From Verrucomicrobiota bacterium (GTDB lineage Bacteria > Verrucomicrobiota > Verrucomicrobiia > Limisphaerales > J093), in assembly GCA_022710935.1 (NCBI GenBank), contig JAKLFY010000010.1:19562-83561 (forward strand): a stretch of 64,000 nucleotides of DNA, read 5' to 3'. Both the position numbers and the translations under genes were made by a program. The notes below the pieces were generated by a model. That model had not been told where the DNA came from. It saw nothing but the letters and a program-made list of their open reading frames with translations, and did not search any database. This document shows, in pieces, positions 35,995 through 49,200 of this stretch (position 1 is its first letter; the number at the start of each line of letters is the position of its first letter).

Positions 35995-36364
35995 CCGGGG
36001 CGTAGGCCTTGAGATCGAGGGTCAGTTGACCTCCGGAGATCGGCAGCACCCCGCCAGTCGTCTCGCCCCTCAGCGTGACCGGTTGGGCCACGGAGACCTT
36101 CAAGCCGGCTGGCAGTGTGACCGTCAAGGGTCCGGCCAACCCGCCCTGTTCCCAGACACGCAAGAGGGTGCCGGGCTGGCCGTCGGGGTCCTCGCCAAAC
36201 GCGGTGACGAGCACGCCGCGACGGGACAGAGTGAGGCCTGCCTGAGTCTTGTAAACGATGATGTCTTTGGGCGGGGGTGTGTCGACGGCCTCAACGGCGC
36301 TCGGGGCCAGCAGGCTGAGCAGCAGCCAGACCAGGAGTGAGGGGAGGGTGTTAGGTGCTTTCAT
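35975..36364 (-). CDS. Small secreted hypothetical protein
   Basis: ATG at 36364 (MKAPNTLPSLLVWLLLSLLAPSAVEA is a signal peptide) followed by a beta-rich mature part. It is convergent with ilvA and overlaps it by 20 nt. An alternative ATG at 36379 lies inside repeat module A. Confidence 0.5.
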   Translation of the reverse strand: MKAPNTLPSLLVWLLLSLLAPSAVEAVDTPPPKDIIVYKTQAGLTLSRRGVLVTAFGEDPDGQPGTLLRVWEQGGLAGPLTVTLPAGLKVSVAQPVTLRGETTGGVLPISGGQLTLDLKAYAPVSHILR

Positions 36365-36372
36365 GGAGAGCG

Positions 36373-36697
36373 TTGACATTCAACGGGTGAATGCGCACGA
36401 GGACCGTGGACCAGAAACGCTCAACGCTCAACGCTCAACGCCCAACGTTCAACGCCCAACGCCCAACCAGCCGATTCACGGGCGTCGCGGTTTCATCGTC
36501 TCCGGCAACGCCGACAACGCGACAGACCGGCGGTGTGGTACGCCGACATGCCTTGCCAGCGCGGCGGCGGGACGCGGCGACTGCGCTGGGCGAGGCGCGG
36601 TGGCTCCGGGGCGGTCTGCTGCCAGTGGCGTCCCTCCGGTGAAATCGACCGCGTTCAGGTTGTTGGGCCTGACCAGGGGCAGGCCCGAGTTTCTGAA
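36373..36697. repeat. Composite intergenic repeat R1 (module A + 7x heptamer array + ~230-bp GC-rich body)
   Basis: 325 bp, roughly 85-90% identical by eye to R2 (37214-37517). It contains a CGYYCAA heptamer array at 36418-36466 (7 units). Confidence 0.85.
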
Positions 36698-37213: not shown

Positions 37214-37517
37214 TTGACATTCAGAGGGTCAATGCGCACGGGGACCGTGAACCAGGAATGTTCAACGCTCAACGCTCAACCAGCCACCAGCCGACTCATG
37301 GGCGTCGCGCTTTCATCGTCTCCGGCAACGCCGACACCGCAACGGACGGGGCGTGTGGCACGCCGACCCGCCTTGCCATCGCGGCGGCGGGACGCGGCGA
37401 CTGCGCTGGGCGAGGCGCGGAGGCTCCGGGGCCATCTGCTGCCAGTGACGTCCCTCCGGGGAAATTGACCGCGTTCAGGTTGTTGGGCCTGACCAGGGGC
37501 AGGCCCGAGTTTCTGAA
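37214..37517. repeat. Composite intergenic repeat R2 (module A + 3x heptamer array + GC-rich body)
   Basis: A 304-bp direct repeat of R1, with a heptamer array at 37259-37279 (3 units) and a duplicated CCAGCC(A/G) heptamer. It ends 30 nt before the ASPIC gene start. Confidence 0.85.
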
Positions 37518-37546: not shown

Positions 37547-40500
37547 ATGGCGTCGGCGGCTATTGATGCGAGAGCGGACGATGGCATGGGCGCTTTCGGG
37601 AACATCCTGGTCTTCGCCACGGGCGTCCTCGCGGGAGGGTGGACGATCTGTGCGGCTTCCGTTTCGGCCCTGGTTTGGGGGACGGGCGAGGGGTTTCGCG
37701 CCGCCGCGCTCCCTGTGTTCGAGGGGGGGCGCGCAGGGTTCACGCTTCTTGCGGCATCGGAGACGGGCATCGCGTTCGCGAACATGCTGCCCGAGTCGCG
37801 TTTTGTGACCAACCAGGTGTTGCCCAACGGGGCGGGTGTCGCGGCGGGCGACGTCGACGGCGACGGCTGGTGCGATCTCTACTTTTGCGGGCTGAGTGTG
37901 AGCAACCGGCTCTACCGGAACCTGGGTGGCTGGCGTTTCGAGGACATCACCGGGGTGGCTGGCGTCGCGTGCGCGAACCGGGATTGCACGGGCGCCGCGT
38001 TCGCCGATCTCGATGGGGACGGCGATCTCGACCTGGTGGTCAACTCGATCGGCGGCGGGACCCACCTGTTCTTCAACAACGGGCGCGGCGGTTTTGCGGC
38101 CAGCCCGACCCCGTTGAATCCAGGGCGGGGCGGCACGTCGCTGGCATTGGCGGACGCCGACGGCGACGGGGACCTGGATTTGTACGTCGCCAATTACCGC
38201 ACTTCGACTTTGATGGACGCGCCCGGGACGCGCTTCACGCTCAAAGTGGTCGACGGGCGCCCGTTCGTCGCCGCGATCAACGGGCGTCCGCCGACCGATC
38301 TCGAGTGGACGAATCGGTTTCGGTTCAGCTTCGATCTGGGGTCGGGTGGCGTGGGGCGATTCGCCCGGGAGGAGTTGGGCGAGCCCGATGTGTTCTTTCT
38401 GAACGACGGGCACGGACGATTCACTCCCGTGCCGTGGACTGGCGGCGCGTTTCTGGACGAGGACGGCCAACCGCTGACGCAGCCGTTGTTCGACTGGGGG
38501 CTTTCGGTCCTGTTCCGCGATTTCAACGGAGACGGGCGCCCGGATCTCTATGTCTGCAACGACTTTGCCACGCCGGACCGTTTCTGGCTCAACGAAGGGC
38601 AGGGCCGGTTCCGGCTCGCGCCCAGGCTCGCGCTGCGTCAGACGAGCCTGGCGTCGATGTCGGGCGATGTTGCGGACATCGACCGGGACGGTCACGTCGA
38701 TTTCATGGTCACGGAGATGCTGAGTCCCGACCACAGCCGGCGGCTGACCCAGAGAAACGTCGTGCAGGGCGAGACGCCCGCCGGAACACAGATTGAAGGC
38801 CGTCCCCAGTACCCGCGCAACACCCTGTTCCTGAGCCGTGGGGACGGGACCTATGCCGAGATTGCGCAATATTGCGGTGTCGAGGCTTCAGAATGGTCCT
38901 GGGGACCGCTCTTCCTGGATGTCGACCTGGACGGTTACGAGGATGTGCTGGTGCCCAACGGATTCGAACGCGACAACATGAACGCGGACGTCCAGGCCCG
39001 CATCCATGCGGCCAAGGCGGGACGGAAGATGTTGACCGTGGACGAGCTGCAATTGCGCCGGATGTTCCCGCGTCTGAACACGGCCAATCTGGCCTTTCGG
39101 AACACCGGCGCGCTCGAGTTCGTGGAATGCAGCACGACGTGGGGATTCGACCAGCCGACCATTTCGCAGGGGGCGTGTCTTGCCGATCTCGACAACGACG
39201 GCGACCTCGATGTGGCGGTGAACAACATGAACAGCCCGGCCGGGATCTACCGCAATGAGTCGCTCGCACCGCGTCTGGGCGTCCGGCTGCGGGGACGTCC
39301 GCCGAACACCAGCGGCGCCGGGGCGCGCATCACGGTTTCGGGCGGACCGGTCGAGCAAAGCCAGGAGATGGTTTTGGGCGGACGCTATTGTTCGGGCGAT
39401 CAGGCGCAGCGCACCTTCGCGGCAGGCTCGGGGCGGTCGATGGATGTCAGGGTGCGGTGGCGCAGCGGGCGTGAGACGATCCTGACAAACATTGGTCCGA
39501 ATCGCCTGATCGAGATCATCGAGTCGGACGGAACCGCGTCGGTGTCATCAGCCGCGCCGATCGAAATCGGGCAGGGGACTGCCGGGGAGGGAGGTTTGCG
39601 GCGCGATCGCGGAGGCGAACGGGTTTCGGAGTCTCCGGCGCTCCGATTTGTTGACGTGAGCAGCGCGATTCGGCACGTGCATGTGGACGAGCCCTATGAC
39701 GATTTCGGGCGGCAACCGTTGTTGCCGCGGAAGCTGAGTCAGCTCGGCCCCGGCGCGGCCTGGTGGGACATGGACGGCGACGGGCGGGACGATTTGGTGA
39801 TTGGGGGCGGACGGGGCGGCGCGGCCGCGTTGTTCCTGAACCTGGGCGATGACCGTTTCAAGCGCTCGACGCACGAGGCGTGGCGTCGCGCGCTCGATCG
39901 CGATATGGCCGGGCTGGCCGGGATCGCCCCAGGCGAACTGTTGGGCGCGATGGCGAACTACGAAGACGGCGTCACGAATGGAGTCGGGGTCGCAGTTTGG
40001 CGCAAGGAGGTGTCGACCGGGGTGCTGCCGCTTGCCCCGGCGAGTTTTGGGCCGATTGCGGTTGCCGATTTCGACGGCGACGGCGACCTCGACCTGTTTG
40101 TTGGCGCCCGCGCGGGGGCGGGGCGCTATCCGGAGGCGGTTGCGTCGGCACTCTGGCGGCGGGAAGGGGCGGGGTTTGAACTGGACTCCGAGAACACGGC
40201 GCGGCTGCCGCAAGGGTTGGTGAGCAGTGCGATCTGGACGGAACTGACGGGGGACGGCTGGCCCGAGTTGGTGCTGGCCTGCGATTGGGGGCCCATTCGG
40301 ATGTTTCGCAACGAGCGCGGACGGCTCAGCGAGTGGAATGTGCCGGTGAACGTTCAGCGTTCAACGTTCAACGTTCAACATTCAACCCCCAGCCGCGCCC
40401 TCGCCATCAACCCTCTTCCATCAACGCTCGACGAAATGACAGGCTGGTGGAACGGGGTGGGGGCGGGCGATTTCGACAACGATGGGCGGCTCGATTTGGT

Positions 40501-45954: not shown

Positions 45955-46272
45955 TGGGTTCATGGTCCCAATGCGTTCATAAGAAACACAACTCCGCTCC
46001 CCAGGAACCGTGGTTCCGTAGCCATCCCGCATCGCGGGATGAGTCCGCGCCATCTCGCACCGCAAAGACAGGAATCAGCGCCGACTCACGTCGGCGGCTA
46101 CAAATCAGTTCATGGTCCCCGCGCGCATTGAGCGGGTGAATGTCAACGCTCCCCATGCATTGTGTGCGCAAACCGTTGGTAGCTGAAAGGAACGTTCAAC
46201 GCTCAACGTTCAACGTTCAACGCTCAACATGCACCTGAGCAGTTCGTTGGACGTTGGATGTTGAACGTTGCG
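45955..46272. repeat. Composite repeat region upstream of ASPIC paralogue 2
   Basis: 46019-46100 is a reversed copy of the 7420-7507 element with one arm degraded. 46105-46150 is reversed module A (...GGTGAATGTCAACG). A heptamer array lies at 46193-46227 (5 units), followed by an inverted heptamer array (TTGGACG TTGGATG TTGAACG) at 46247-46267. Confidence 0.8.
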
Positions 46273-46286
46273 CTGAGCAGGCCGCG

Positions 46287-49200
46287 ATGATCAGACCGCC
46301 TTCGATCAACCTGGCAGGGCTCATGGGTGCGCTGCTTTGTGTCGCATGCCACTCTCTCGAGATTCCTTCCTTGCCTCCGTGGCAAGACGTTGCCGGCTAT
46401 CGCGTTCGTCCGGTGGTCCAGCCTCCTGGAAAGCGTCCCGGCTTCACGCTGCTCACCCCGGCGCAGTCGGGTCTGAACTTCACAAACGTGTTGACGCCCG
46501 GGCGAGCGGCGGAAAACCAGATCCGGCTCAACGGATCGGGCGTCGCCCTGGGGGATGCGGATGGCGACGGGTGGTGCGACATCTATTTGTGCGGGCTCGA
46601 GAACGAGAACGCCCTCTATCGCAACCTTGGCAACGGGCGCTTCACGAACATCACGGCATCGGCGGGCGTTGGGTGCGGGGGGCAGTATTCGAGCGGGGCG
46701 GTGTTTGCCGACGTGGATGGCGACGGCGACCTGGATCTGCTCGTGAACGGTGTCGGCACAGGGACCCGTTTGTTTCTCAACGGCGGCGGGGCGGTCTTCA
46801 CCGAAGCGGCGGAGGCCGGGTTGGTGCGCACGTACGGCGCCACGACCGCGGCTCTGGCCGATACGGATGGCGACGGCGACCTTGACCTGTACGTGGCCAA
46901 CTACCGGACGACGACCGTGCGGTCGACCGGTTTTGTCGTTCTCAACGTGGGCGGTCGCCGGATGATTCGTCCGCAGGACCGCGAGCGGCTCGAACTGACC
47001 CCCGAGGGGCGCGTGCTCGAGCATGGGGAGCCCCATTTCTTCTACCGGAACGACGGTGGCGGGCGCTTCAGCATCGTGCCGTGGACGGATGGGTCTTTTG
47101 TCGACGAGGATGGCCGGCCCCTGGCGGGGGCCCCGCGGGACTGGGGCTTGTCGGCCATGTTCCGCGACCTGAACGGGGACGGCGCGCCCGACTTGTATGT
47201 CTGCAACGATTTCCACTCGAACGACAAGATTTGGATCAACGATGGCCGGGGCCGTTTCCGGCTCATCGACCGGCTGGCCATCCGCAACTCTGCGACCTTT
47301 TCGATGGCAGCCGATTTCGCCGATGTGAACCGGGACGGTCACGATGACATCCTGGTGTCCGACATGATGAGCCGGCAGCATGGGCGGCGCCTGATGCAGG
47401 ATGCCGGGATGGATCCCTATTCCGTGCGGCTCGGTGTGTTCGACGACCGGCAGCAATTCGACCGCACCGTCTTGCAGCTCAATCGCGGGGATGGCACCTA
47501 CGCGGAAATGGCCTACTACGCGGGTGTGCCGGCCTCGGAATGGACGTGGTCGGTGGTCTTTCTCGATGTGGATCTGGACGGGTTCGAGGACATTCTTTGC
47601 ACGACAGGGCACATGTTCGACACCCAGGATCTCGATGCCCAGGCGATGATTGCCGCCAAAGGCCCCTGGCCGCGGGAACGCGTCCCCGAGAAGCTCCTGC
47701 TGCTGCCGCCTCTGCATCAGGCCAATCTCGTCTTCCGCAACCTTGGATCGAATCGGTTCGCCGAGGCCGGACGGGATTGGGGCTTCGATCAGGTGGGCGT
47801 CTCGCAGGGGATTGCGCTGGCGGACCTGGACAACGACGGCGATCTCGATGTCGTGGTGAACAACCTCAACGGCGCCGCCGGGCTGTATCGGAACGACACG
47901 TCCGCGCCGCGCGTGGGTGTGCGCTTGCGCGGCCTGCCGCCCAACACGCGCGGGGTGGGCGCGAAACTGCGGCTCGATGGCGGCGCCGTTCCGCTTCAAA
48001 TCCAGGAAGTGATCTGCGGCGGACGGTATCTTTCGGGCGACGAAGGGGCACGCGCGTTCGCCGCCGGGCATCCCACCAACCGGATGCGGCTCGAAGTGAT
48101 CTGGCGCAGCGGGCGTCGGAGCCTCATCGACGGCGTGCGCGCGGATTCCTGCTACGAGGTTTTCGAGCCGGCGGACGGCCCGGTTGCGCCCCGGCCGCAG
48201 GCAAATCCGGAGCGGCCTTTGTTCGAGGATGTGTCGAATCGCTTCGGCCATCGGCATGTCGAGACCCCGTTCGACGATTTCGCGCGCCAAAAGTTGTTGC
48301 CGAATCGGCTCAGTCAGCTCGGTCCCGGTGTGGCCTGGCACGATCTCGATGGAGACGGGTGGGAGGATTTGACCGTGGGCGCGGGCAAGGGCGGGAAGCT
48401 GGCGATGTTCCGCAACAACGGACAGGGCGGATTCGACCGTCAGGAAGTGCCGCCGGGCGACCAAACCGCGCCGCGGGATCAGACGGGCGTGGTCGGTTGG
48501 CGCGTGGGCGATGCGGCCGCGCGTCTGCTTGTGGGCCACGCCCATTACGAGGACGAAGAAAGCGTCCCCGGCGGCTGTGCGGTCGCAGTGTTAGACATGG
48601 CCGGCCGCGGTCCCGAGGAAGCGATTCCCGCGGACCAATCGAGTGTCGGTCCGCTTGCCCTCGCCGACTACGATGGCGACGGGGAACTCGACTTGTTCGT
48701 GGGCGGCCGCGTGATTCCCGGACGCTATCCTCTCGCCGCCTCGTCCCGCCTTTACCAGGGCAAGGGCGGACGGCTCATGTTGGACGAGGCGCAGACCGCA
48801 GTTCTGCAGCACGTGGGTTTGGTGAGCGGGGCGGTTTGGACCGATCTGGATGGGGACGGCTGGCCCGATCTGGCGCTGGCGTGCGAGTGGGGGCCGGTGC
48901 GTGTCTTCCTCAACGATCGCGGGCGGCTCCGCGCGTGGAATGTGGCGGTGAACGTTCAACGTTCAACGCACAACGTTCAACGCTCAACCGACGCCCTCAC
49001 CATCGACGCGCATCCATCAACCCTCAATGGACTGACAGGCTGGTGGAACGGGATCACCGCCGGCGACCTGGACGGCGACGGGCATCTGGACCTGATCGTG
49101 TCGAACTGGGGTTTGAACACGAAGTACCAGGCGGGTCCTGAGAGCCCGCGTCGGCTCTACTATGGCGACTTCACCGGGAGCGGCGGGGTCGATCTCATCG

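Follow-up and report, generated by a model that had tools for sequence, protein, structure and literature searches.

Heptamer arrays in two ASPIC/CRTAC1-like genes

The stretch of DNA analyzed here (hereafter, the window) comprises 64,000 nucleotides (nt) of a Verrucomicrobiota genome (assembly GCA_022710935.1, contig JAKLFY010000010.1, positions 19,562 to 83,561; G000:C2:19562-83561 in our numbering) and contains two paralogous ASPIC/CRTAC1-like genes, P1 and P2, each with an array of 7-nt repeats that is translated as part of the protein. P1 (37547-41440, + strand), recognized from its open reading frame (ORF), translation, and Pfam matches, encodes 1,297 amino acids (aa) arranged as two FG-GAP propellers with a UnbV_ASPIC domain after each. 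P2 (46287-50051, + strand) probably begins at the ATG at 46287, within an ORF that is open from a TTG at 46254. Matches to PF13517, PF01839, and PF07593 above the Pfam cut-offs place both proteins among the FG-GAP/VCBS and UnbV_ASPIC families, and both appear to be secreted, judging by their N-terminal sequences. They share 50% amino acid identity, and protein alignment confirmed the original prediction, made from the letters of the window, that the arrays occupy the same loop in the two paralogues. The genome (G000) holds five copies of the loop region, three with a long loop (P1, P2, and a third paralogue with (CCCTCAA)x4 in that loop, G000:C35:5694-5721) and two without it. More widely, the ASPIC family was found in 35 of 41 related genomes (this one included), often in multiple copies.

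The best-preserved part of the P1 array consists of five CGTTCAA-like units (40351-40385, + strand), and the corresponding core in P2 of five CGYTCAA-like units (48953-48987, + strand). Both lie at the coordinates, and encode the peptides, that had been claimed for them, and Tandem Repeats Finder agreed, calling period-7 arrays at 40349-40386 and 48951-48988 (5.4 copies each) with head-to-tail units at 83-90% matches. These 35 nt, the portion first listed, are only the clearest part of each array, and the period of 7 spans the entire 84-90-nt loop segment. In P1 this segment is the whole loop (40346-40435, + strand; residues 934-963, V-N-V-Q-R-S-T ... P-S-T-L-D-E), with a lag-7 identity of 0.60, compared with a mean of 0.26 and a maximum of 0.41 for windows of the same length across the gene. 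For the equivalent P2 loop (48948-49031, + strand) the lag-7 identity is 0.56, where same-length windows of that gene average 0.24 and peak at 0.38. A two-unit probe allowing up to one mismatch matched the window 10 times, where shuffled sequences gave an expectation of 0.04. The units are nonetheless imperfect, and the longest run of identical perfect units is three in P1 and two in P2, so neither gene contains a long perfect tract. Folded as hairpins, the coding arrays reach a modest -9 and -13 kcal/mol (z ~ -2.3), and we make no claim of a structural RNA. Inspection by eye of the repeat peptides N-V-Q-R-S-T-F and P-S-T-L-N-P-Q found no N-x-S/T sequon.

Because 7 and 3 have no common factor, three heptamer units (21 nt) are needed to return to the same frame. 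Read from the sequence, those three units encode one heptapeptide, and all three frames give the same cyclic peptide: CGTTCAA units yield R-S-T-F-N-V-Q, CCCTCAA units P-S-T-L-N-P-Q, and CCATCAA units P-S-T-I-N-H-Q. The TCAA orientation is free of stop codons, whereas its complement always contains TGA, and hence all in-frame arrays of the NNNTCAA family are in the TCAA orientation. Losing three units leaves the frame intact. Losing one unit would shorten P1 to 961 aa, and gaining one would replace its last ~350 residues with 436 out-of-frame residues, while a one-unit change in P2 would give a product of 913 or 953 aa. The expectation that a single-unit change would wreck the frame is thus borne out, with the C-terminal third of the protein lost or altered.

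The loop in orthologues and distant homologues

Comparison with orthologues showed that the NVQRST-type insert is lineage-specific, as had been suspected. Orthologues of P1 and P2 within the genus, representing five or six species, have loops of the N-V-Q-R-S-T type. In orthologues from other genera the loop is non-periodic, rich in P, S, T, and A, and variable in length, and some homologues have no loop at all. What is kept across genera is the sequence on either side, W-x-x-P on the left and P-S-T-L-(N/S/D)-x-L-T-G-W-W-N on the right. The borders of the array (W-N-V-P and P-S-T-L-N-x-L-T-G-W-W-N, respectively) are therefore ancestral coding sequence common to other genera. Among the genus orthologues themselves, only 25-33% of loop columns are invariant, compared with 65-83% elsewhere in the protein.

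Length differences among close relatives include whole heptapeptide steps. The P2 orthologue in G005, which is 93% identical, lacks exactly 21 nt (three units) in the loop, and two members of one 90% cluster (P0004 and P0130) differ by 7 aa. The type of unit also changes. The loop of one copy in G004 is purely (CAACGTT)3(CAACCAT)3, and the third paralogue carries (CCCTCAA)4 in G000 and G003 and (CCATCAA)4 in G002, a switch that alters the peptide from T-L-N-P-Q-P-S to T-I-N-H-Q-P-S. The repertoire of G004 is shifted genome-wide to CCATCAA and CTCTCAA, and its loops use CCATCAA. We also considered whether compensated one-unit slips had caused the spacer to be re-read in another frame; this was rejected, as the spacers of P1, P2, and their orthologues align in one frame.

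In more distant relatives, the same site is occupied by unrelated repeats. Loop length varies from 7 to 61 residues among ~120 homologues with 40-60% identity, many of which show heptapeptide periodicity there. Three of these were examined at the DNA level. In one (GCA_015075445.1, JABTUJ010000050.1), a 61-residue loop comprises about ten GACCACG-like units and then nine perfect units of GACTTCG (lag-7 identity 0.72), while in the other two the loop consists of (AACGCTC)x4 and (GAAACTC)x5. The loop is hence a permissive site that has been refilled repeatedly by whichever heptamer is active in the lineage. A scan of metagenome contigs with a 151-aa segment bearing the loop returned no near-identical relatives, only matches of 49-57%.

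Sharing of the array between paralogues

A tree built from 574 alignment columns, with the loop removed, resolved P1, P2, and the third paralogue as three separate clades, each grouped with array-free sequences from other genera, which indicates that the paralogues predate the genus. Well-supported branches of this tree force at least three changes of heptamer-loop state. Overall, P1 and P2 are 60% identical in nucleotides and 45% identical at third codon positions. Across the array and ~12 codons to its left, these values rise to 88-90% and 86-93%, respectively, making this the most similar stretch of the C-terminal half. From these sequence comparisons, gene conversion between tandem copies accounts best for an array shared by P1 and P2, better than two insertions or conservation of the peptide. 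The tandem ASPIC paralogues of another genus (G016:C1) share ~19 consecutive identical codons over the left flank of the loop, while being 64% identical elsewhere, which suggests that gene conversion around the loop may recur in the family.

The third-position pattern bears directly on whether N-V-Q-R-S-T-x is simply an ordinary conserved motif, selected as amino acids, with the DNA periodicity being incidental. The occurrence of this peptide in both paralogue lineages and in five or six species of the genus would fit such a motif. Under selection on amino acids, synonymous sites should drift, whereas third positions in this segment show the highest conservation of the gene. Moreover, whole arrays switch unit type in concert and change the peptide as they do so, the peptide was not found outside the genus, and no version of it with scrambled codons was found among the ~120 homologues. 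The segment also falls in a part of the structural model with low confidence (see below). We therefore consider selection on a conserved peptide motif a very improbable explanation of the loop.

Predicted structure of the loop

An AlphaFold2 model of P1 residues 688-1297, based on a 37-sequence alignment, had a mean predicted local distance difference test (pLDDT) score of 88.3 and a predicted template modeling (pTM) score of 0.91. Within this otherwise confident propeller, model residues 253-267 (P1 940-954; window 40364-40408) have pLDDT values below 50, and the blocks covering model residues 251-270 (P1 938-957) have mean values of 41-48. The low-scoring loop lies in the second propeller, where it joins the last strand of one blade to the first of the following blade, in agreement with the surface-loop location that had been proposed for it. 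The repeat peptide is a polar, probably disordered surface loop. The best solved relative, by both sequence profile and fold, is murine CRTAC1 (9etn; Foldseek E-value 8e-22, TM score 0.61-0.67). In the propellers of integrin alpha subunits, the connections from strand 4 to strand 1 lie on the face that often binds ligands, and by analogy we infer that the P1 loop may lie on a comparable face.

Intergenic arrays and a dispersed composite element

Heptamer arrays also occur between the genes of the window, as the original prediction had stated. Tandem Repeats Finder identified a 7-unit array of the same unit family at 36416-36467 (+ strand, 7.4 copies), a 3-unit array at 37262-37280 (+ strand, 2.7 copies) situated ~270 nt upstream of P1, and a 5-unit array at 46191-46228 (5.4 copies). 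The last of these has an inverted partner at 46245-46270, and together they form a long hairpin (46191-46270, + strand; -26.5 kcal/mol, z = -5.3 when folded as single-stranded DNA) that ends ~20 nt before the probable start of P2. A 27-codon ORF (46153-46236) reads this upstream array as N-V-Q-R-S-T-F-N-V-Q-R-S-T, matching the peptide of the protein loops, with its ATG at the end of a composite element of the kind described next.

In this genome, many intergenic arrays are joined to copies of a dispersed composite element. Its core is ~45-50 nt long (TTGACATTCAA ... TGAATGCGCA ... GGGGACCATGAACC-like) and often lies between GGTTCATGG/CCATGAACC inverted repeats. One core (36373-36417, + strand) adjoins the 36416-36467 array, and sequence comparison revealed two more, at 37214-37258 (+ strand) and ~46108-46146 (- strand). 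The genome contains 63 copies of this element, and in some of them the terminal CATGG coincides with the initiation codon of an oppositely oriented gene (e.g., the minus-strand ATG at 36364). An Rfam scan of the window returned one tRNA only; neither the arrays nor the composite element matched any described RNA family.

The proximity of element and array raises the possibility that a mobile intergenic module, akin to a Rickettsia palindromic element or a miniature inverted-repeat transposable element, was inserted in frame together with the composite element and was subsequently domesticated. Units of the same kind are attached to the dispersed element, three copies of which lie within 10 kb of the genes, and P1 and many of the intergenic copies have the short string CCAGCCG after the array. 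This string is only 7 nt long, though, is the sole one shared in P1, and is absent from P2 and most orthologues. Neither the element core nor its flanks (TTGACATTCAA..., GGTTCATGG) were found beside any coding array. Since the codons bordering the array are ancestral, a discrete element with its own ends is not what the genes contain, and the unrelated units that fill the same loop in distant homologues do not fit such an insertion either. In addition, TCAA-type heptamers directly follow only 14 of the 63 cores (49 have none there) and many arrays have no element flanks, which shows that the array and the element are separable and points to a microsatellite. Insertion of a mobile module is thus quite unlikely to be the origin of the coding arrays. 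For the suggestion that an intergenic module had been domesticated, or is tolerated, as a surface loop, these results support a tolerated loop and speak against module insertion.

Heptamer repeats across the genome and its relatives

The genome of the Verrucomicrobiota bacterium (7.5 Mb, 64% G+C, 259 contigs) is rich in such repeats, in keeping with the claim that the unit family is enriched beyond the locus. Tandem Repeats Finder returned 520 period-7 rows, with AACGCTC (41), AACCATC (24), AGATCGG (23), and AACGTTC (22) being the commonest units. These merged into 282 arrays of at least 3 copies, and 63 arrays satisfied a strict (NNNTCAA)x3-or-more pattern. Approximately 56 of the 282 arrays lie in frame within candidate coding regions and ~80% lie outside coding calls, which were crude in this census (ORF length and codon score, with no gene finder). 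Heptamer arrays were present in all five genomes of the same genus. The exact four-unit pattern also occurs in many Verrucomicrobiota, Kiritimatiellia, Lentisphaerae, Acidobacteriota, Comamonadaceae, and others, where it is usually intergenic and often accompanied by other heptamer types or inverted partners.

Stability of intergenic and coding arrays

A contig from a sister strain (L184, JGI metagenome 3300010346) provided a view of change over a short time scale. It is 99.46% identical to the window over 23.7 kb, with a single indel, and this indel is a 175-nt difference in the intergenic array at 36416-36467 (25 units; 7 in the window compared with 32 in the sister strain). The strains did not differ in the two shorter intergenic arrays (3 and 5 units) or in either coding array. 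Likewise, the loops were identical in all sequences from the same species (six for P1 and four for P2, counting those of the window). Slippage is hence very active in long intergenic arrays, and in the short, imperfect coding arrays it is below detection at the present sampling depth. The argument that imperfect units would not slip rapidly agrees with this absence of change in same-species sequences and in the sister strain.

These data allow an assessment of whether the genes are contingency loci, in which slips of one or two units would switch off or truncate a secreted propeller protein, slips of three units would vary an exposed loop, and the resulting phase or antigenic variation would be selected. 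Several features are those expected of such a locus: a 7-nt unit lies within the reading frame of both P1 and P2, where a one-unit change truncates or scrambles the product; the unit family slips vigorously between genes; three-unit alleles exist among close orthologues; and the proteins are apparently secreted, with the loop exposed in the model. Against this, runs of perfect consecutive units do not exceed three in P1 and two in P2, all orthologues of the genus and all cluster members examined are in frame through the array, and the same-species loops are identical. The ~56 in-frame arrays in many kinds of genes, cytoplasmic kinases among them, also fit a mutational by-product better than a tuned switch. 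Among ~25 orthologous or near-identical sequences, no allele whose unit number would shift the frame was found. We accordingly regard selected phase variation at this locus as unlikely.

A single frameshifted copy was encountered, the third paralogue in G004, and was evaluated as a natural OFF allele. It was rejected as such because the shift results from a 10-nt deletion in the spacer between heptamer blocks and the neighboring genes are also broken. All three ASPIC genes in this cluster (G004:C24:57500-62600) are split into shorter ORFs, and real decay is indistinguishable from assembly error in these split genes.

A probable microsatellite within a permissive protein loop

Overall, we consider it likely that the loop is an in-frame heptamer microsatellite of the NNNTCAA family, tolerated at a permissive site and remodeled by slippage, unit turnover, and gene conversion. 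Under this interpretation, replication slippage would add or remove units, and selection would purge changes other than multiples of three units unless they were compensated, leaving the 7-aa steps seen among surviving sequences. Variant units would spread along an array by concerted turnover, and gene conversion between the tandem paralogues would copy a segment from one gene to the other. The site itself tolerates anything from 0 to ~60 residues across the family, and the peptide would have no specific function. A possible starting point for the arrays is the conserved P-S-T-L-N stretch, whose codons can take the form of two exact CCCTCAA units, although the finding of unrelated units at the same site in distant homologues makes a special seed less necessary.

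Other observations weigh against this interpretation or parts of it. Certain orthologues differ in length by 12 or 18 nt, which does not correspond to a whole number of units, and so point mutation and other indels must also shape the loop. The peptide itself may be under some selection, given that N-V-Q-R-S-T is retained in both of the paralogue lineages within the genus. In outgroups, the P-S-T-L-S codons fit a two-unit repeat at 5/7 positions in one sequence and at ~2/7 in another, making seeding in situ a weak proposal. The number of in-frame arrays in the genome depends on the crude coding calls described above, and unit counts taken from assembled sequences would be compatible with rare out-of-frame alleles in the population.

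Comparison with known repeat systems

Heptamers are reported to be the most over-represented long simple-sequence repeats (SSRs) in many prokaryotes, especially those with large GC-rich genomes, and have been little studied (PMC4692102, PMC4679880). Examples include the STRR heptamers of cyanobacteria (Calothrix and Nostoc) and the GGGAATC-type repeats of Xanthomonas and Nostoc (Rehm et al. 2015, PMC4692102, citing Mrazek et al. 2007). The repeats described here resemble STRR-type long SSRs in forming many dispersed tandem 7-nt arrays, most of them intergenic, that vary in unit number between close relatives in large GC-rich genomes of non-pathogens; even the coding arrays differ by three-unit indels between orthologues that are at least 90% identical. 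Unlike the STRR and GGGAATC repeats, NNNTCAA units are not G-rich and would not be expected to form G-quadruplexes. A further difference is that a considerable fraction of the arrays, though a minority, is read in frame, and in the three paralogues such an array supplies the entire loop.

In marine Beggiatoaceae, TAACTGA direct repeats lie mostly upstream of genes, and the few copies within ORFs occur only in the stop-free orientation and mostly at protein ends (MacGregor 2015, PMC4679880). Both systems comprise dispersed heptamers, often just upstream of start codons, with a coding potential that depends on the strand. The arrays in P1 and P2 are instead deep in a folded domain, at a blade-to-blade loop, and show three-unit indels between orthologues, unit turnover, and exchange between paralogues.

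Among phase-variable loci with non-triplet repeats are the Neisseria opa genes, with CTCTT repeats in the coding sequence, and Haemophilus influenzae hmw1A, with 7-bp repeats. As in these contingency loci, a non-triplet repeat lies in the gene for a surface or secreted protein, and a one-unit slip would alter expression. In contrast to them, no out-of-frame alleles were seen here, the tracts are short and imperfect, and housekeeping-type and cytoplasmic proteins of this genome contain repeats of the class as well. Rickettsia palindromic elements are in-frame insertions of a mobile repeat into ORFs, and here too the protein gains a surface segment from repeat DNA read in frame while keeping its fold. 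Those elements are discrete, with fixed length and ends, whereas the microsatellite in P1 and P2 grows, shrinks, and changes unit type in place. The loop array represents a variant of a known repeat class, not a novel type of element, and on these data it is not shown to be a phase-variation switch.

In our literature searches, no paper dealt with in-frame heptamer arrays of Verrucomicrobiota, a phylum that can now be added to the small number of lineages whose heptamer repeats have received some detailed study. The locus illustrates how a non-triplet microsatellite can persist inside a folded protein, namely through a stop-free strand, three-unit steps, concerted turnover, and exchange between paralogues, and it offers a concrete route by which repeat-prone genomes could create and remodel protein loops. 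It also carries a caution for annotators and phylogeneticists, in that identical peptides in the loops of paralogues can be recent events at the DNA level and not conserved motifs.

Heptamer arrays in other genes

A second paralogous family has arrays at equivalent spots. In-frame heptamer arrays occur in seven Ser/Thr protein kinase proteins (G000 contigs C13, C184, C206, C211, and C157), of which six have WD40 propellers, and encode peptides of the S-T-L-N-S-Q-L, P-S-T-I-N-H-R, and I-S-N-L-K-S-Q types. In six of the seven, an array is situated at a similar spot inside the kinase domain, and four have a further array in the linker between the kinase and WD40 regions, ~220-280 residues downstream. 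Together with the differing heptamers in the same ASPIC loop across Verrucomicrobiota, the kinase-WD40 arrays could reflect a lineage-wide, possibly enzyme-driven generation of 7-nt repeats that diversifies exposed loops in 7-residue steps and switches paralogues off by out-of-frame slips. There is only a small chance that such a process operates; if it does, it would constitute a contingency system in free-living environmental bacteria.

Long in-frame arrays of other units were also observed. One DUF354 protein contains 16 GAGGTCA units (39 aa; G000:C239:5498-5612), and a 965-aa ORF contains 13 GGGAGAT units (32 aa; G000:C35:28034-28127).

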